Source: Yuukianura sp. NJ FZ-2021 (Eukaryota). Taken from it: a DNA stretch of 64,000 nucleotides. Numbering within the stretch: position 1 is the stretch's first letter; each line of letters begins with the position of its first letter. The stretch is from positions 8,122,001 through 8,186,000 of the forward strand of contig CM102289.1 in assembly GCA_046563655.1 (NCBI GenBank). Reading direction: 5' to 3'. The notes under the pieces were generated by a model that was not told the DNA's origin, did not search any database, and saw only the letters and a list, made by a program, of their open reading frames with translations. Below, in pieces: positions 1 through 26,168 of this stretch. The translations under genes and the position numbers were made by a program.

Positions 1-2975
1 TGGATGATTTCCATAAGGAAATCTAGCATCGTTTTTGTCGTATTGTGGCGTATGGCCTTAGCGTAGACGTATCGTGAGAGGAACTCGACTAGGACGACAA
101 TGTACTTATTTCTCGACTTTGTAGAGGGCAGGGGCCCGATGACATCTACACTGACTCGGTCGAAGAGGTCACCGACTGGGATGGGTGACAATAGTCCAGC
201 GGGATGTGTGTTCCGGACCCGGCGCTTCTGACAGATGGCACAGTTCCGTACGTAGTCGGTTATAAGCGCGTCGAGCTTGAACGCGAAAATGCTGTTCCGA
301 GCCCTGGCAAGGGTTCGGGCGACGCCTAAGTGACCCATGAGTACGTCGTCGTGGAAACGAGGTAGAACGGAGTGCATCATGTGCTTCGGGATGACTGGAA
401 GGTTGGTCTTCGTTAGTTTGCATTTGTATTGTAGGAGGCCGTCATCTACAGTGAAGCGTTTGTGGAGCTTGCTCCTAGCGTTTGTAGTGAGAGTAGCTAA
501 GATTTTCTGGAGCTTCTCGTCGTTTTGTTGTTGTTGTATGAGCTCGGTACGCGAATCTATCGGGGTAACAAATTGCATTGCGTACCAGTGTACTGGGAAC
601 TCATCAGTAAATGTCGCAGCGTGATCCTCCACAGGGAAACGTGAGAGGCAGTCTGCTTGAACGTGGCTTTTCCCATTGACGTGCTTTATTATGTAGTCCA
701 CGTCCTGGAGTCGTAATGCCCAACGTGCCAGGCGCGAGTTGCGCAAATTCCTGCACGTTTTGAGGTAGCAGAGGGCGTGATGATCGACCACAATCGTAAA
801 GGCTTTGAAGCCAATATACTCTCGAAATTTTTCAATTCCCCACAGAACTGCTAAGCATTCCTGTTCACTGGTGTTGTAGCGTTCCTCAGCGCCACGGTAG
901 GTGCGGCTGGCGTAAGCCACCACGCGTAAGGTGTCCTCCTCTCGCTGTTGGAGAATGGCGGCAATGCCCTTGTTCGATGCGTCTGTGTGTAACTCGAGTT
1001 CTGCATTCTCATTAAAGAATGCGAGGATGGGTGCGGAAACCAAACATTGGCGAAGGGAATCGAAGGCTCCCTGTTCCTGGTCGCCCCACTGAAAAGCTAC
1101 GGTACTTTTGGTGAGCTCAGTCAGTGGTTTTGCAATTTGGCTGTAGTTCTTGATGAAACGACGGTAGTATCCAGTACAGCCAAGGAACGTCCGAACTTCG
1201 TGAACGTTGGTGGGAGGTCGCATCTCAGTGATGGCCTTAACTTTGTCAGGGTTGACGGCAACTCCATCCCCCGTAATTATGTGACCAAGGAGTGCTAGTT
1301 TCGTCTGCCCGAAATAGCATTTCGGGGGTTGAAGAGTAAGGTTGTAAGCACGAAACTGTCGGAAGACATTTTCCAAGTTGGCCAAATGTGACTGAAAATC
1401 TTTGGCGAAGACGCATACATCGTCCAGGTATGCAGTACAAATGGAGTGGATTCGCGTTCCAAGAACTGTCTTCATAAATGCGCTAAAGGCAGCTGGAGCG
1501 CAAGTTAAGCCGAATCCCATGTAGAGGTGTTCGTAAGCGCCAGCATGAGTCACAAAGCTCGTCTTTTCTACGTCGTCCGGATGAATCGGGATTTGGAAGT
1601 AGCCGGACATCAGATCCAGGCAAGAGAAGTACTTGGCGCCATTCAGAGAAGCCAATAGTTCAGAAATTACTGGCATAGGCCAGTTGATGGTTTTGGTCAC
1701 GAAGTTGAGTTTCCTCCAGTCGATGACCATCCGGTATTTGTCGCTGTTCGGTTTCTTAACTAGAGAAACTCCAGCGGCCCAAGGGGAGCGGCTTTCTCGA
1801 ATAATTCCTGCTTGTAGAAGTTTGTCGACTTCTTCTTCAATTATTTTCTTCTCTGCTGGACTCTTCTTGTAAGGTGGGCAGCTTACTGGTAGTGCGTCGC
1901 CAGTGTCTATACGGAAAGTGACATCTTTGGCTTTACCAAGTTGGTCCAAATTCCAAGCGAAGATGTCGCCATATTCTAAAATGAGAGCACGGAGTTGCGC
2001 TTGTTCGCCGGTGCTTAAGTCTGGATTTATTTGAAGTTGGTCAATATTTTCTCGGGTTGATTCCTGTCGTTGCCGGCGGATTTCCTCTTCTGGTTCCGTT
2101 TCTCGAACCAAAACACGGTAGATATTCCCGACGTTGACTCCGCGGTACAACTTGACAGCGACTGGACGCGGATTGTCAATGGGGATCTCGAAGTCTCCTT
2201 CTGCGACATGAGCGAGTCCTGGGGCACAAAGGCCTAACTTGTCGAGAGCTTGGCTGTTTGGTTCGAAAGCGAGTATTCCTCGGAGCTGGTCAACTGGAAA
2301 GACCTTGATGAGCGTAGTCGAGAATGGTGGCAGCATCGTTTCCTCAGCTGTAAGAACTTTTGGCATCGAGGGACCATGAACCTGGGTAGCGTGAACTTGT
2401 TCGCGTTGCATTGTGTTTAGACTCAGTCCAAGGGCTGCTGGGGTACGTAGGTTGAATCCTCGCGGTACCTTCATACCTAGGAACTGGAAAGTTCCATGTT
2501 CCAGCGACTTCGAATACTTCAATTGCAGTTCATGTTCCAGTGTGAAGTCATTCCCGAGGATTACATCGTAGGATATGTCCGCCAGGACATAAAACTTATG
2601 CGTTAGCAGAGTGGTTGACTTGCGGGAAAATGTGACTTGCCGATAGACGTAACCGAGTACCGTGACCTTCGACCCGTTTGGAAGGTCGAGAGCTGATGAA
2701 GAGTCTATGGGCCTGATTTCGTCCAGAGTGACATTGTTGAGCCGAATTATGCTGACTGGGCATCCCGTGTCAAGGAGACACGAGCATCGCTTGAGTTTTG
2801 AGTTTTGTGACAGAAATATGCTAATTATGAGATTGCCGACTGGATCCATACTGCTAGGGTCTCCTGGAAAAGCTGTGTTGCGGGTCATCATAGCTAGAAT
2901 TGGTCGTGTTGGATTAGAGGGTTTAGCGTTTGAGTGGGCTTCAGACCTCTCTACTGTCGCCGCGCTGCGTTTCCC
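1..2975 (-). CDS. pol: Pol polyprotein (aspartic protease, RT, RNase H, integrase N-terminus), -1 frame relative to gag, open to the window edge
   Basis: Manual translation gives LLDTG (2763-2777) and DVILGNDF (protease); SPWAAG, DWRKLN, LDLMSGYFQI and YLDD (1419-1430) (RT); HTDAS, AYASR, ECLAVLW, VDHHAL, ADCLSR (RNase H); H-x5-H...C-x2-C and VDVIGPLP (integrase). All motifs are in one frame with no stop found. It is missing from the ORF track because it has no stop inside the window. Confidence 0.96.
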
Positions 2976-4456
2976 TGAGCCGTTACGGTTCGTCCTGCAG
3001 TCGGTGCTGATACGACAGCACGAGTTGAGTTGTCCTTGTCACAGGGTGAGGCGGGTCTCATGGCGTGATAATCGTCGCCTACCACAGGACATTGATATCC
3101 AAGGTGTGTCCCGTCACAATGTTCACAGTGGACACGTTTTCGGTTCCAGTTTGTGTCCCGTTGTTTCGACCGCTTGGGGCAGTTGGCTATGCGGTGGTCG
3201 TCCCAACCGCACTCATAGCATCCTGGGTACAGCTTTTGGCCTTGCCATGGTGGGAATTGGTGAGCCGGTTTTCGTTGTCCAAAGCCATACCGGTTTGGCT
3301 TGTGGTATAGGGGTGGCTGCTCGCGGTTGTAGCCGTGGCCTGCTTTCCCCCATGTTGGGCGTCGTCCACTCGGGCGTCGATCCGCCGGTGGCGGTCGCGC
3401 TGGTGCCTCCAGATTCATGTTGTTGAGACGTGCGGTTAGCCTGGGTAGGTCAGTGCCAGCCCGTTTCCGCTTCATCATGAAGTCATAGTTCTCCTTTTCG
3501 ATGAGGTACTGCATTACGTCCTGCGGCGTCTTCGGTTGGCGCAGAAATACCTCGTGACTGACATCAGCAGGCAACCCCTTGAGCAGGAAGTTGACTCGCT
3601 TCTCGTCCTTCATGGTGGTTCCTTGGCTTTTGTCCAGCTGGTCACATAGTCGCAGCACCTTGCCGCAGTAGTCTTCCACGCTCTCTTTTGGATTTCTCTT
3701 CCGCTGGGCCAAGCGGTGTTCCAATTCTTCCTCAGTGAGCCGTGACTTGAAGCTAGTGTGGAATCCCTCCTTCAGGGTCTTCCATGGAAGAGCGGCAACG
3801 TCGCCGTTGGCATCTCGATTGGCTGGGTCACGCTCCCAGTCAGTGCGAAAGTTCAAGAACCAAGTCTTCGCATAGCCCTTGAGGTAAAGCGGCAGATGGC
3901 GCACTTTCGCAGCCTCGTCCCATCGTTGATTAACAGCTATTGCCTTGAATGTCTCCCAGAAATTCCTGGCTGGGTAACCTCGCTTCCCCTCGAATGTTGA
4001 ATCGCCCGGTGGTGTCCAAACGGATACCACAACACTCGGTGCGGGAGTCGTCAGCACAACAGGCTGCTGAGGTCCCGGAGTAGGTGGCGTGCCTACGCCT
4101 CCTGGCGTTCCAGATGCTGGTGGCTGTCCGCCACCGGTTAGGTTCACAACTGGGACTGTTGAGCTTGGCCCACCAGCTCCTGCTGGCGGCGTCGGTGGGG
4201 TAGTCGTTGCGGGCACCGGAAGAGTGAACGCGCTCCCGGCCCCTCCGGCGGGTCCTGTTGTCCCGCCCGTTTGGCCCGTTGTGGGGCTAACGACAGGGTC
4301 GCTAGGGCTTGTCGTCGCACCGGCTCCTGCCGTGGGCGTCTTCGGCCGTTGCCGATCTCGTTCCTTTGCCTCCTTCAGTACTGCGGAGAGGTCCGCAAGT
4401 CCGTACGTTGGTGGAGTCCCGTCCTGTCGGGTGTGTCGATGAGCTGGATCCGACAT
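2951..4456 (-). CDS. gag: Gag (capsid + nucleocapsid), 501 aa
   Basis: WDEAAKVRHLPLYLKGYAKTWF and QRKRNPKESVEDY capsid-like motifs; zinc knuckles CYECGWDDHRIANC (CX2CX4HX4C) and CEHCDGTHLGYQC (CX2CX3HX4C); P/T/G/A-rich N-terminus. Confidence 0.92.
   Translation of the reverse strand: MSDPAHRHTRQDGTPPTYGLADLSAVLKEAKERDRQRPKTPTAGAGATTSPSDPVVSPTTGQTGGTTGPAGGAGSAFTLPVPATTTPPTPPAGAGGPSSTVPVVNLTGGGQPPASGTPGGVGTPPTPGPQQPVVLTTPAPSVVVSVWTPPGDSTFEGKRGYPARNFWETFKAIAVNQRWDEAAKVRHLPLYLKGYAKTWFLNFRTDWERDPANRDANGDVAALPWKTLKEGFHTSFKSRLTEEELEHRLAQRKRNPKESVEDYCGKVLRLCDQLDKSQGTTMKDEKRVNFLLKGLPADVSHEVFLRQPKTPQDVMQYLIEKENYDFMMKRKRAGTDLPRLTARLNNMNLEAPARPPPADRRPSGRRPTWGKAGHGYNREQPPLYHKPNRYGFGQRKPAHQFPPWQGQKLYPGCYECGWDDHRIANCPKRSKQRDTNWNRKRVHCEHCDGTHLGYQCPVVGDDYHAMRPASPCDKDNSTRAVVSAPTAGRTVTAQGNAARRQ
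2969..2975 (-). other. -1 programmed ribosomal frameshift slippery heptamer G GGA AAC
   Basis: X XXY YYZ heptamer phased with gag, 5 codons before the gag TAG. The -1 frame reads straight into the protease. Confidence 0.85.
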
Positions 4457-5930
4457 GGCTTACTTCGTCTTCTTCTTCTGAAAGGATCAGATGATTAGTT
4501 GTATTTGGTCCCCTAGGTCTTGGGATGATGCGGGGTCGAGGGTTGGACAACTTCCTCCCTCGGCATTTGCAGAAAAATGAAATAGCTATTGCCCCCATGC
4601 CGGCTAGTAACCCTACTATGAAACCGCGCATGAAGGTGTCGGGGTTGAATATGTCGGACATAAGGTGGGCAGTTTGACAGTCTACCCCCAGTTGAAGATA
4701 TGCGTATAGGGACTTGTCCATGAGTAGCTTGTTTTCCCGGGTTATCAGCTGGACCCGGCCTTTCTCGTAAGTGTAAACGCCTCGTTCTGTGTCCCGAATA
4801 CCGACAAGGCGTAGATCTCGTAGGTGAGGGTATGGCATGTAGATGTCGGGCTCGTCCCATAAAGTTTTGATCATGCCCTTCTCCAGGTATAGCGGCCTCC
4901 ATCCAGTGGTCAGCTTAATCCAGAGGGTGTGTTCTGACGGGAAGTATCCCAAAACTGGGTATGTAATGCCAAAGATACTTCGGTGCTTGAGTCCTGGTGT
5001 AATTAGGTGGCCATCTGATGAATATACTCCGATTTGGTCGTCAACCATAACATAGAGGTAACTCGCGACGCCGACTGTAAAGTTGATTCGGCCGTCTGGC
5101 GGGAAGTCCTCGAAGAAATCGGAATTCTGCACTGGAGTAGGAAGTAGTGTCCCAGCTCCTGTAACTCTAACGTGACCTTTCCCGTGGAACAAGAGATGTT
5201 CCCCATTGAGGTAACCAACATGATCGTACCATAGGGTACTCAGGCCTCGGATGTTTTCTCCATCCGGCCCTTCGTCGAAGAATCCTGGTGGGTACAGGAC
5301 TTTCAGTGCTTCTTCGTCGGGAACTCCTATTTCCGTAACGTGCGGCCAGAACTGGTACCATGCTGTCATCACAGATCCTATGGCACGAGTGTGTGGCAAG
5401 GCCAAGGCGTGGCCTATTTCGTGTAGGAGTACCGAAAATAGATTGACGTGTTCGTCGTCTTCTCCGAGAGACCAAGTCTCGTTTGCGTCTAGGTGGATTT
5501 GTCCGCCCATAACTGATCCTGGATAGTGGGCGTGGGCTAGTGTGCCTCCACGTCCGTCACTGGCGTCATCATGAATTTCGTGTTCGAAAGTGATGGAGAT
5601 GTCCGCACTCCCTTCTACGTAAGTAAAGGTGAAGTTGGAATAGCGTTGCCACTTCACAAACGCCAGACTGGCGTCAGCCAGTGCTTCTTCTCGGTCCATA
5701 TCATATGGAGTAGGTCCAAGGGTCCAGGTAAGGTCCTTCTTGGTCCACCGGTGAGGGTTCACCGGACTTCGTCGAGTTCGTGTCGCCAGTGCCCACGGGC
5801 ACATCATCGTTCCGGCGACCTCTGCAACAAGCGTCGTCCCGACGCAAAATACAAGGAGCATCCGTGGAGTCATACCGTCCAGGTATCCTGTAACAGGGTT
5901 GAACCGCCAAGGTTCGGTAATTTGTTTCAT
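4302..5930 (-). CDS. Membrane-type matrix metalloproteinase (M10A-like) carried by the retrotransposon. First in-frame ATG is 5930; alternatives are 5873 and 5861
   Basis: Hydrophobic leader MLLVFCVGTTLVAEVAG; RTRR (5769-5780); W-x-K-x-x-LTW; ADISITF; DGRGGTLAHAHYPG; GQIHLDANETWS; HEIGHALALPH (5391-5423); SVM Met-turn (5367-5375); degenerate hemopexin-like region; TM GFIVGLLAGMGAIAISFFC (~4569-4626); basic tail. Confidence 0.92.
   Translation of the reverse strand: MKQITEPWRFNPVTGYLDGMTPRMLLVFCVGTTLVAEVAGTMMCPWALATRTRRSPVNPHRWTKKDLTWTLGPTPYDMDREEALADASLAFVKWQRYSNFTFTYVEGSADISITFEHEIHDDASDGRGGTLAHAHYPGSVMGGQIHLDANETWSLGEDDEHVNLFSVLLHEIGHALALPHTRAIGSVMTAWYQFWPHVTEIGVPDEEALKVLYPPGFFDEGPDGENIRGLSTLWYDHVGYLNGEHLLFHGKGHVRVTGAGTLLPTPVQNSDFFEDFPPDGRINFTVGVASYLYVMVDDQIGVYSSDGHLITPGLKHRSIFGITYPVLGYFPSEHTLWIKLTTGWRPLYLEKGMIKTLWDEPDIYMPYPHLRDLRLVGIRDTERGVYTYEKGRVQLITRENKLLMDKSLYAYLQLGVDCQTAHLMSDIFNPDTFMRGFIVGLLAGMGAIAISFFCKCRGRKLSNPRPRIIPRPRGPNTTNHLILSEEEDEVSHVGSSSSTHPTGRDSTNVRTCGPLRSTEGGKGTRSATAEDAHGRSRCDDKP
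4478..4498 (-). promoter_or_regulatory. Putative splice acceptor (branch point CTAAT + TCCTTTCAG), 21 nt upstream of the gag ATG
   Basis: Minus strand reads ACTAATCATCTGATCCTTTCAG|AAGAAGAAGACGAAGTAAGCCATG. Confidence 0.55.
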
Positions 5931-6640
5931 TGCTTCGTTTGTAGCCTCGTTGTGTTTCGCTCCTCGGGGTATGCGACAGGTGTCGAAGAAAAACCTCTGT
6001 CCTACGTCATCGCCTCTCTCGAGTGGTCGCGACTCCACCCTCAAAGCGACTCCGATTGCTTGCTGAATGGGCAGCTGCAGGGTCTGGGACCTTCTGTGTC
6101 TGCAGCCCGGTCAAGTATTACACCGTTGCCAAGGGAACGCGCACCGTCCCTTAACCCGTTCCTTCACGGAAAATTTACCTATCGGTCTTCGGTTTCATCC
6201 ACGACAAAGCGCGGATAGCAAGTGAATCTTCTAATCGAGCCGTAATACCTCAGCCAGCTACCCAACTGGTGAGGGAGGAAATTAGCAGAAGAGAGAGACG
6301 TTGGAAGCTGTAGCTGCTCTACTTTAATTTCTGGTTGACTGAATTAATTACCACTACTGTAACTGTGAACCTTTGACTAGAGCCACTGCCCTATGAGGTG
6401 AGCTTTGGCCTTGGACAGAGCGTATGTGATGTCAGTAAAGGACTTTCACCTCTACGAGGGTCACCTTCTTTACTGCACCTGTTCGATGCCCTTGGCCACT
6501 CGCTCGCCAGAGGGGGGGATAGTACTAGGTCGTAGTCACTTCCGTAGAAAGTGGTTTCGTAGAAAGTAATTCAGTTTTCTCAAATGGTCCAGGTCACCCC
6601 TCATAGTACCACATTATCTCCTAACTCATTATATTATTTT

Positions 6641-6800
6641 ATTACGTTATTACGTTATTGTAATATTTACTTGGTTACGTTATTGTCCTTAAATAAATGT
6701 TCTACGTTATTGATTCGCACTCGCATTCATCCATTACGTTAATTACGTTACGTTAATAGCTGCGTTAGGTTACGTTAATTACGTTAATAATTACGTTAGG
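6641..6800. repeat. Array of ~10 TACGTTA motifs in the retroelement leader/LTR region
   Basis: Counted directly: 10 TACGTTA copies plus one TGCGTTA, in AT-rich spacers. Confidence 0.85.
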
Positions 6801-7533
6801 TTGTGGTACTGAATCAGCAATAGTCTCGCTTGAACAAAAAGCGCAAGAAAGAAAAGCAAACAGCGGCAGAGGCGGGAACCTCTTATTCTTTTAAAAGAAA
6901 TTGCCATCCCGGCAAATGCACCAAATGTTACGTTGGAAAAACGCAATGCCGTCCAGAAGGGCCCTTGGGGTTCAACCGCTGTCTAGTCCAAGGGGTCAAG
7001 GGCCTTAGAGACCCCTTCCCGGCGATGAGTCCCGTCAATAGTAAGTGTAAGGGTTGATGTTAAAATAATAAATAAATAAGTGTCTCCCATACCTTCTGCT
7101 ACTGGTGATAGTTGGGTGATTTTATTTTACAGTGAATAGGTTAAGTGCTAGTCTTCCTTCCTTCGTGCTTCTCTTAGTGCCCTTTCTTACTTCCAAACTA
7201 TGAGTGCGGGGTATTTAACATAAGTGCCTAATTGGGGCTATTGATAGTGTGGTTTCCGGGTAAGTTTTAGTACTAAACCGCATTAGCGGCGCTGGCTGTG
7301 GTTGTGTTAATTGTGCTGAATAAATTCGGCCTTGCGGTTTCTATCTTAATTTCCTTAGCCTTGCTATTTCTTCCTCTTAGTAACTAAAGTGACTTAGTAA
7401 CTAAGTGCAGTTGTTAGCCCTAACCTTGACATTGAAGTGAAAGTCTAGTGCAACAATTTACGGGTGCAACAATTGCCGCACCGGAAGCAAGATAATTTCG
7501 GGTTATGAAAGTGGGGCAATAATTTCAGCAAGA

Positions 7534-8556
7534 TTACTTATTTACATTGATGGATTCAAAGTCGATTGTAATTGTTGTCTTTACTGGAACATATTTTCTG
7601 CAAAGAAAAGAAAATCCAAAAATTAATGTATCACGGTAATTCATTAATAATTAATAAAGTTTGATTACGTGAATCGAACCCCAGCAGACTCAAACAAACG
7701 CTTCGCCGCTTTGACGCTGGGTCTGGCCTCGTATTTGTCAGAATAATAGATCACCTAAACATAACAAAAATTAACAACGTACTAAATTAAAAAATTTAGT
7801 AAGTAAAGTTAACCTGCTTAATCCCAGACTGAATTATTAGCTTAGCACATTCATTGCAAGGAAACAGAGCAACGTAGATTCGGCAATTCTTCAATTCCCC
7901 TACAATTTTATTGAGTATAGCATTCATCTCCGCATGACAAACTGAAAATTCAATAAACAAGTCGTTACGCAAAATAAGACTTAGAATTTATAAAAGTCTA
8001 CAAAACTCTCTAAGTAGCAGGACTTACCGTACATATGCTTTTGCTCCAGTACATCCGATGAAGCCTTACCCCAAGGGAAAGAGTCATCGCTACATCCAAT
8101 TGGGAATCCATTGTAGCCGATTCCAACAATTTTATTCTCGGAGTTGACTATACATGCGCCAACCTACAATCCCAGACAAAAAAAAAATAAGCGATTCTTT
8201 GTGGGTTATGAACCAAAAGACTTCGTTGACCTGAGAACACGGATCCTTTGACCTCATAGCCGATAGAAATGCCACCGACATAAAATACTCTTCCCAGGAA
8301 ATGTAATCTTCTCTTTTCTCACTTGACTTGTTTTGCGGTATCGGTTCCGTTGTCAGCGAAGATTCTGTAATACTAAAATACATGACAACGTTAGCTTTAG
8401 GCTAAAGTCAAAATTTAGCAAAATTTATTCAAAATTTAGCACATCAAGATCAAGCTAAAGGCTTTAGCTTGATCTTGAATGATGTGCTAAATTTTGACAG
8501 CAAGTCAATTAGTATTTAACTCAGCCTGATATAACAACTTACCCATTCGGGTCCAT
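7534..8556 (-). CDS. DCTD: dCMP deaminase (6 exons)
   Basis: Spliced translation: MDPNG|ITE...[36 protein letters not shown]...GIGYNGFP...|[10 protein letters not shown]...[16 protein letters not shown]...|...[14 protein letters not shown] and PCxxC zinc motifs present. Confidence 0.95.
8431..8495. repeat. Near-perfect palindrome (30-bp arms, one 4-nt bulge) in DCTD intron 1
   Basis: aaaatttagcacatcaagatcaagctaaag-g-ctttagcttgatctt(gaat)gatgtgctaaatttt. Confidence 0.8.
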
Positions 8557-25078: not shown

Positions 25079-26168
25079 CTGTCTGTCTGTCCAGATTAAT
25101 TATCTCAGAAACTACTGTCCCGATTTGATTCCGGTTTTCACCTATCAACACCCCATGACCCGGACTAGGTCGCTATTGAATATGACCCCAGGCTGTCAAC
25201 TCCTTCCGGGTCAAAGGTCAAGGTCAACCGGTTTCATCCCCGGTAACATGGAAAATGACCTCTACAAAAGTTGTTCATCTCATCGAGGGGAACAACTTTT
25301 GTGTGTAATGTGTGACCCTAGGTCACCTGCTTCCGGGTCAAAATCGCTTTTAAAGGTCATTTGTAATGCAAGTGTGGATAAAAAAACTCTGCTTGTGAGA
25401 CTGGAAAGGCAATTGGCATGGGCCTTGGTTCTCTGCTTAGCAAAAAATCCATTACGCAGTTGACTAACACACTCAACTGTCACCTGTCACACTTCATCTG
25501 TCACTTCACCTGTCACGCGCCGGGTGTCACCTGTCATGGCTGTCACGGCTGTCACTTGCCGGGTGTCAGCTGTCACCTGTCACTTTCCGGGTGTCACCTC
25601 TCACCTGTGACTTTCCGGGTGTCACCTGTCACTTGCCGGGTGTCAGCTGTCACCTGTCACTTGCCGGGTGTCACCTCTCACCTGTCACTTTCCGGGTGTC
25701 ACTTGTCACTTGCCGGGTGTCAGCTGTCACCTGTCACTTTCCGGGTGTCACCTCTCACCTGTCACGTGCCGGGTGTCACCTGTCACTTGTCACTTGCCGG
25801 GTGTCACCTGCCACGTGCCGCGTGTCACCTGTCACCCTCAAGTGTCACTTGCCGGGTGTCACCTGTCACGCCTCAGCTGTCACGTCTCACCTGTCAAAAC
25901 CCCCTGGGGGGGCGGGAAAGTGGGGGAACACACCCCCACTACCCCGGGGGGGCTGGAAAGTGGGGGAACACACCCCTACGCTTCCTGGGGTGCGGAGCAA
26001 AAAGCGGGAAAACACACCCCTACTCCCCGGGGGGGGGGGGCGGTAAAGTGAGGAAAACACACCCCCCACTTCCCCCGGGGGGGAGGCAGGAAAGTGGGGG
26101 GAACAAACCCCCTTCGGGGGGCCTATTGCTTCGCTATTATCAGTATGGGCGGTTTACAACCGGTTTAT
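25012..26168 (+). mobile_element. Non-autonomous Helentron-type element (HINE/DINE-1-like)
   Basis: 13-bp subterminal IR ataatagcgaagc (25016-25028) / gcttcgctattat (26128-26140); (GTCT/GTCC)n microsatellite near the 5' end; central tandem repeats; 3' hairpin cggtt-tac-aaccg (26150-26162); T-rich ends. Confidence 0.8.
25477..25896. repeat. Complex minisatellite of TGTCAC(C/T) and GCCGGGTGTCA units
   Basis: Directly visible; it produces spurious C/H/V/T-rich ORFs in all three plus frames. Confidence 0.9.

Follow-up and report, generated by a model that had tools for sequence, protein, structure and literature searches.

The 64,000 nucleotides analysed here (positions 8,122,001 to 8,186,000 of the forward strand of contig CM102289.1, assembly GCA_046563655.1; hereafter the window) belong to the springtail Yuukianura sp. 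NJ FZ-2021 and harbour at one end part of a long terminal repeat (LTR) element of 12.8 kb in total, encoded on the minus strand in the order LTR-MMP-gag-pol-env-exonuclease-like-LTR. It is a young env-carrying Ty3/gypsy element (Metaviridae) with errantivirus-like layout, in which an open reading frame (ORF) for a matrix metalloproteinase (MMP) precedes gag, so that in the unspliced RNA another large ORF comes before gag. The element comprises in the window:

6926..7471, minus strand: 5' LTR of 546 bp with TG...CA ends, without differences from the 3' LTR beyond the window
6906..6923, minus strand: primer-binding site (PBS), complementary to the 3' end of a host tRNA-Trp
5931..6905, minus strand: leader of about 1 kb with 9 ATGs
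4302..5930, minus strand: MMP ORF, membrane-type matrix metalloproteinase (PF00413), with ATG at 5930, signal-peptide ATG at 5873 and stop at 4302
2951..4456, minus strand: gag ORF (PF03732, PF19259) with ATG at 4456
2975-2969, minus strand: slippery site G GGA AAC at the end of gag, present in families F1 and F2
1..3038, minus strand: pol ORF (reverse transcriptase, RNase H, integrase), running past the window edge

The element is flanked by a 4-bp target-site duplication (CAAT). Outside the window (locus L011), the remaining part of the integrase is followed by an ORF resembling F-type env, an ORF of the 3'-5' exonuclease-like type and the 3' LTR. Pfam matches are ordered gag, then reverse transcriptase-RNase H-integrase, as in Ty3/gypsy, the protease being without Pfam match. 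The env match (PF12259) reaches 22.2 bits in the window element, just under the cut-off of 24.1, and 29.4 and 33.1 bits in F2 and F5, respectively. The family of the window element (F1) has five more copies or fragments in the genome, which also contains four diverged families with MMP before gag (F2-F5; 26-30 % identity for MMP, 33-47 % for Gag). All five close gag copies genome-wide have MMP ahead, and the Gag start is homologous across all five families. The upstream MMP ORF measures 460-540 codons; its tail overlaps gag only in F1, while in F2-F5 the MMP stop lies about 110-180 nt before gag, separated from it by a non-coding spacer. Besides the MMP ORF, 10 more ATGs precede gag in the window element.

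Two features directly upstream of gag bear on its expression:

4478..4498, minus strand: predicted gag-pol acceptor, with branch-like CTAAT (4498-4494), a short pyrimidine tract and CATCTGATCCTTTCAG/CAG ending at 4478
4457..4477, minus strand: start of the predicted gag exon, GAA-rich, the repeat length varying by multiples of 3

An earlier note on this DNA had proposed that an intron from 6178 to 4478 makes gag the first ORF. The motifs it described are all found on the minus strand where it placed them, i.e., CTAAT, CATCTGATCCTTTCAG up to 4478, the GAA-rich stretch, the gag ATG at 4456 and a donor-like AG|GTAAAT at 6178, with 1701 nt between donor and acceptor. For scoring, donor and acceptor matrices were trained unsupervised on 250 introns, of median length 79 nt, deduced from about 256 kb of host sequence in the neighbourhood. 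The host consensus is a GTAAGT donor and a T-rich YAG acceptor, and the model recovers 3 introns of the adjacent, presumed dCMP deaminase gene; it is rough, and AAG acceptors are under-represented in it (4/250 training sites, partly by construction). On this scale the acceptor at 4478 attains 5.4 bits, corresponding to the 14th percentile of the inferred host acceptors. It is better than chance, exceeding dinucleotide shuffles of its own 120 nt (p=0.009-0.010) and ranking fourth among the 785 sense-strand AGs of the element. The four top-ranking AGs all lie at most 30 nt before ATGs, namely those of the exonuclease (two sites), env and gag. A P of 1e-8 derived from the AG analysis was not relied on, since it is post hoc and the AGs are non-independent. 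The gag acceptor ranks 1-2 of about 410 AGs in sister copies and first of 242 in the F1 coding core, and the site is unchanged in 4/4 sister copies.

Comparable sites precede gag in the diverged families. In the F3/F4 spacer an AG|G is located 21-25 nt before the gag ATG in 7/7 aligned copies, flanked by variable sequence (an eighth copy, L110, gave no alignment); six of these sites read AAG and one CAG (canonical TTCAG). F5 has a TAG 24 nt before the ATG (8.1 bits) and F2 an AAG 10 nt before it. In F2, F4 and F5 the MMP-gag spacer contains further ATGs ahead of the acceptor, which argues against simple reinitiation, and a TATA motif shared before gag was not found (TATA in 1/8 spacers). Combined tests (one representative per family group, 30-nt window before the ATG, shuffle nulls, Fisher combination) gave p values of 0.0009 for gag (0.009 without F1), 0.0006 for MMP, 0.001 for env and 0.0005 for the exonuclease ORF, values that are optimistic because the families are related. 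An acceptor of at least 4 bits is present at 12/15 ORF starts versus 9/150 control ATGs. The acceptor at 4478 is probably genuine, as judged from these signals.

Candidate donors for this acceptor are provided by the 5' LTR:

7211..7218, minus strand: TATA-like box, TATAAATA in 3/3 sister LTRs
7184..7193, minus strand: alternative donor GAA|GTAAGA (GT at 7190), 8.4 bits; GAA|GTAAG in 4/4 F1 LTRs
7121..7126, minus strand: AATAAA poly(A) signal inside the LTR
7086..7095, minus strand: predicted major donor AAG|GTATGG (GT at 7092), 7.1 bits, after AATAAA and before the PBS

Judging from the spacing to the TATA-like box, transcription is predicted to start near 7188. The motif AG|GTATG at 7092 is found in 4/4 F1 LTRs, and its place in the LTR architecture matches that of the donors in F2-F5. 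In 14/14 LTRs from the five families the order is TATA, a poly(A) hexamer 62-140 nt past the predicted start, and then the donor, which scores at least 6.5 bits in all 14, lies 96-274 nt past the predicted start and has no ATG ahead. A Poisson test for the ATG-free first exon (0 versus 12 expected) is partly circular. Among divergent LTRs the donor represents a conserved island (F3/F4 5/5; F2 4/4, conservation ending at +6). The alternative donor at 7190 is located only 28 nt after the TATA box and is thus possibly at or before the start site; a placement of it 14 nt after an initiator was dropped, 28 nt past the TATA box being the real spacing. Both donors precede the PBS (6923), and RNAs spliced there would therefore be unable to prime reverse transcription. 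Pol-less elements (L186, L187, L188-L189) share LTR motifs and the exonuclease-like ORF with F1 and have GAA|GTAAG donors 29 and 54 nt past TATA; no homologous gag was found in L186-L189, which hence provide no test of gag-first relatives.

The earlier note had used AG|GTAAAT at 6178 as donor instead. This site is strong (8.2 bits, 76th percentile; only 2/332 GTs in 7471..1 reach that score). It is private to the window copy, the GT being absent in 5/5 sister copies, and with splicing from it the first exon would retain nine ATGs (7090-6198) ahead of gag. It is ruled out as a family mechanism on both grounds, and an intron from 6178 to 4478 would not make gag the first ORF. What stands of the proposal is that gag is likely reached by RNA spliced to 4477, as the comparative evidence suggests; what falls is the donor. 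The second donor-like site noted previously, AA|GTAAGC before gag, is present at 4463 and could serve an MMP-only RNA in F1; its GT is kept in 3/4 sisters and missing in one intact-looking copy.

For MMP, translation from unspliced RNA had been proposed. This is doubtful, since 10 ATGs lie between the predicted start site and the first ATG of the MMP frame in the window element, 28-46 lie between LTR donor and MMP ATG in F2-F5, and acceptors precede MMP in F2, F3 and F4. The F2 acceptor (10.2 bits) is situated one base before the ATG (YTAG|AATG in 5/5 copies), and that of F3/F4 (TTCCAG, 23 nt before the ATG) is invariant in 7/7 copies. The corresponding site of the window element is:

5888..5912, minus strand: acceptor-like site before MMP, very weak (1.1 bits), the AG ending at 5888, 14 nt before the signal-peptide ATG at 5873

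This AG is kept in 6/6 F1 copies; sites further upstream in F1 score 2-3.5 bits and are followed by short upstream ORFs. From the acceptors in three of the five families and the roughly 10 to 45 upstream ATGs, MMP is probably also expressed by splicing. AATAAA or ATTAAA follows the MMP stop in 7/7 intact F2-F5 spacers (shuffle chance 0.04-0.24 each), is absent there in F1 and is not evident in two degenerate copies; these hexamers hint at MMP as an alternative last exon. In F1, where the gag acceptor falls within the MMP frame, the MMP tail displays no excess of synonymous change (4 synonymous and 9 non-synonymous codon differences versus 164 and 46 in the body, three pairwise comparisons).

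The leader block 6268-5930 is conserved among copies and predicted to form stems, with compensatory changes in 4/101 predicted pairs; the covariation is slight (term of -0.6 kcal/mol). A conserved U5 motif (7003-6994) is complementary to a conserved leader motif (6158-6149, minus strand), with a duplex energy of -19 to -26 kcal/mol in 3 copies (no null computed); both motifs are inside the predicted intron and could form a packaging or dimerisation contact. The leader contains many TAACGTAA repeats at 6800-6640 (minus strand), presumably resembling sites of bZIP factors, and a GATGACGT motif is located about 140-220 nt before the MMP ATG in F1 and F3/F4. In the F5 leader (L104 7674-8216, minus strand) a 181-aa ORF without Pfam match lies upstream of MMP; by eye, this ORF resembles a macrodomain.

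An acceptor is found directly before the env ATG in 4/4 F1 copies, and the env and exonuclease acceptors rank 1-2 of 362-393 AGs in sister copies. The earlier note had viewed the element as a reversal of retroviruses and errantiviruses, where env is the spliced product; with a predicted acceptor of its own, env would be no exception to splicing here, and the signals make a plan in which everything is spliced more likely than an inverted one. Other cargo is carried by diverged families (L112 1093-10000, L099, L107, L105), i.e., dUTPases, exonuclease-like ORFs and several unknown ORFs of 250-310 aa; F2, spanning about 19 kb, has three unknown ORFs between pol and env.

Based on the observed anatomy, positions, scores and conservation, we infer from the DNA a start site, splicing, a -1 frameshift and packaging in trans as follows. 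Transcription would start near 7188. The donor at 7092 (alternatively 7190) would join an ATG-free first exon to 4477, with a predicted junction 7093/4477; the 2,615-nt intron (7092-4478) would remove PBS, leader and MMP up to 4478, so that the gag ATG at 4456 comes first. Gag-Pol would be formed from the gag RNA via a -1 frameshift at 2975-2969. The same donor would be joined to acceptors before env, the exonuclease-like ORF and MMP (clear in F2-F4, weak in F1). The unspliced RNA, retaining PBS and structured leader and being poorly translatable, would serve as the genome and be packaged in trans, and weak gag and MMP acceptors would let it build up. Such a scheme, in which a single LTR donor is joined to successive acceptors for MMP, gag-pol, env and the accessory genes while the unspliced RNA is mainly genome, is the account we favour by a narrow balance; splicing to the gag acceptor as such, summed over all readings, appears considerably safer and may be called likely. 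More tentatively, and at somewhat below even chances, one may speculate that these elements form a clade in which the full-length RNA is never translated and acts only as genome, all proteins, Gag and Gag-Pol among them, being made from subgenomic RNAs spliced at the LTR donor. If so, the lack of the PBS in spliced RNAs would imply that all packaging occurs in trans and that 5' cargo genes such as MMP can be freely added.

Several observations weigh against the scheme with one LTR donor. The gag acceptors are for the most part weak (8th-40th host percentile), with AAG in F2, F3 and F4; singly, those of F2-F4 are not significant (p=0.08-0.24). The F3/F4 gag site also scores as a donor (5.5-5.9 bits) and ranks only 20 of 400-436 in the coding core. 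The F1 acceptor has a short pyrimidine tract, lies inside the MMP reading frame and falls within one of several invariant runs, neighbouring stretches being equally invariant. Taken by itself, the F1 donor at 7092 does not reach significance (p=0.12-0.19; other families 0.01-0.13), and the remaining U5 is also poor in ATGs in F4 and F5, so an ATG-free first exon is partly a property of R-U5. LTR donors could also act only in U1-mediated suppression of the poly(A) signal, a role of donors in foamy virus (PMC3694450) and HIV-1 (PMC12789967). The MMP acceptor is very weak in F1 (1.1 bits) and F5 (0.3 bits), 4 bits or more are reached at only 5/11 other accessory ORF starts, and no acceptor was found before the dUTPase ORFs scored with the host model, which itself is unsupervised.

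Some of these points would fit Gag synthesis without splicing, i.e., via an internal ribosome entry site (IRES) or reinitiation on full-length RNA or from an internal promoter, the AG being incidental and only env and accessory genes being spliced. Weak gag acceptors, with AAG in three families, are compatible with this, and the known cis-preference of Gag for its own mRNA would favour translation from the genome. Models exist in IRES-driven Gag of MLV and HIV (PMC12789967) and in the Drosophila MDG1 group, whose RNAs appear unspliced in long reads despite small ORFs before gag (bioRxiv 2025.03.14.642691). However, the upstream ORF of the springtail elements (460-540 codons) is not small, the intervening ATGs of F2, F4 and F5 oppose reinitiation, no TATA is shared before gag, and the AG keeps its position in non-coding spacers and is the best of all AGs in the F1 coding core, which renders unspliced Gag expression rather unlikely. 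Slightly less credit still is given to a milder form of the proposal in the earlier note, with splicing between the LTR donor and 4477 for gag-pol, and with F1 MMP made on unspliced RNA that ribosomes would enter by shunting or through an IRES in the structured leader. The absence of a good acceptor near the F1 MMP ATG (the best one, at -14, has 1.1 bits, and those farther upstream, with 2-3.5 bits, are followed by short upstream ORFs) and the conserved, folding block 6268-5930 with its few compensatory changes are consistent with it; the 10 upstream ATGs and the clear MMP acceptors of F2-F4 are not, and the leader structure, given its slight covariation, is equally explained as a packaging signal.

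The exact 6178-4478 intron, despite its strong donor match in the window copy, is very unlikely to yield the gag mRNA, in view of the missing GT in the sister copies and the nine remaining ATGs; it would be at most a minor, copy-specific event. Least probable of all is that the acceptors receive a spliced leader by trans-splicing, which would divide a polycistronic RNA in the manner of nematode operons. An acceptor close to the ATG before each main ORF would suit this mechanism, but the LTRs contain conserved cis donors, and to our knowledge no spliced-leader system is known in springtails.

Genomic copies precisely lacking an intron, which the earlier note had suggested looking for, were not found in the fetched loci: matches to the 40 nt after 8 predicted acceptors all kept intronic upstream sequence. 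Nor was a splice junction apparent in two derivatives with deletions from MMP to the exonuclease (L021, far side without nucleotide match; L116, two breaks; junction bases not scored). Neither negative would carry weight with a donor situated before the PBS. Two short metagenome contigs with related sequence start inside gag; no relatives were found in viral contigs, 18 viral MMP loci had no gag, pol or env match, and 10 gag-like proteins were without useful names or context. The literature surveyed, mostly non-subscription, yielded no MMP-bearing LTR element and no gag-pol spliced past an upstream gene.

With respect to its genomic setting, the element sits about 60 nt past the stop codon of a host gene with which it shares its orientation (window 7475-7535, minus strand), probably in the 3' untranslated region of that gene, which we take to be dCMP deaminase-like from a motif. 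For a neighbouring host gene, springtail proteins are the best homologs that carry names. Several F2/F4 copies (L091/L163, L111/L162, L096/L097) are inserted in tandem satellite arrays with units of about 500-540 bp. Elsewhere in the window (25522-26115), tandem 7/21/28-nt TGTCAC-rich repeats are followed by 40-47-nt G-rich repeats, a similar stretch occurring in L114.

In retroviruses and LTR elements, one unspliced RNA as a rule acts both as genome and as gag-pol mRNA. Splicing to gag-pol would, if true, uncouple the two roles, and would explain how elements of 12-20 kb get by with an entire gene, long leaders and dozens of ATGs before gag. It would likewise account for deleted derivatives that might easily be mobilised, and would offer a natural system for how Gag selects its genome without cis-preference. 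The prediction is exact and cheap to check, as a junction 7093/4477 in the window element.

Splicing in retroelement expression is known from foamy virus pol, copia gag and orf C of walleye dermal sarcoma virus. Retroviruses and LTR elements produce Gag and Pol from unspliced RNA according to PMC10309623. Env-carrying Ty3/gypsy errantiviruses, including ancient ones outside insects, are widespread, with Collembola in the supplement (Chary & Hayashi, PMC13524379). The springtail element resembles them in its LTR-gag-pol-env order, F-type env, tRNA PBS, young copies and predicted env splicing, but differs by the large MMP ORF before gag and a gag-pol predicted to need splicing. The words "splice" and "metalloprot" do not occur in the main text of that paper, and its passage on mite ENV-GAG-POL elements gives no expression mechanism. 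One 5' donor for many ORFs recalls complex retroviruses (here as sequence signals only, several of them weak). A major donor inside the LTR beside the 5' poly(A) signal, which it could suppress via U1, recalls foamy viruses as described in PMC3694450, where the donor is upstream of the poly(A) signal, whereas the predicted shared donor of the springtail elements is downstream, in the predicted U5. In both virus groups, unlike in the scheme proposed here, Gag is made from unspliced RNA (stated in general terms in PMC10309623).

The MDG1 group (412, mdg1, Stalker) is similar in having accessory membrane ORFs (sORF1/sORF2) 5' of gag and a poly(A) site that lies internally, behind the first ORF (compare the hexamer past the MMP stop in F2-F5). 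Its ORFs comprise 70-110 aa, and splicing is not seen in long reads (bioRxiv 2025.03.14.642691), which weighs against splicing to gag, whereas the springtail ORF encodes a complete MMP, and acceptor-like sites precede MMP as well as gag. With BARE/copia (PMC3735527) the element would share splicing to make Gag and separate translated and packaged RNA pools; there, however, the splice is described as removing pol, gag being the first ORF of the genome, while the springtail splice would remove PBS, leader and upstream gene and also yield Gag-Pol. Bdelloid Juno/Vesta (PMC5408684) likewise carry a 3'-5' exonuclease-like extra ORF (DEDDy ORF3), such ORF3s reportedly being typically expressed via spliced messages, as well as dUTPase cargo, but in that description neither an MMP nor an ORF before gag. 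Extra ORFs are also carried by Ogre and Burro (PMC6431247).

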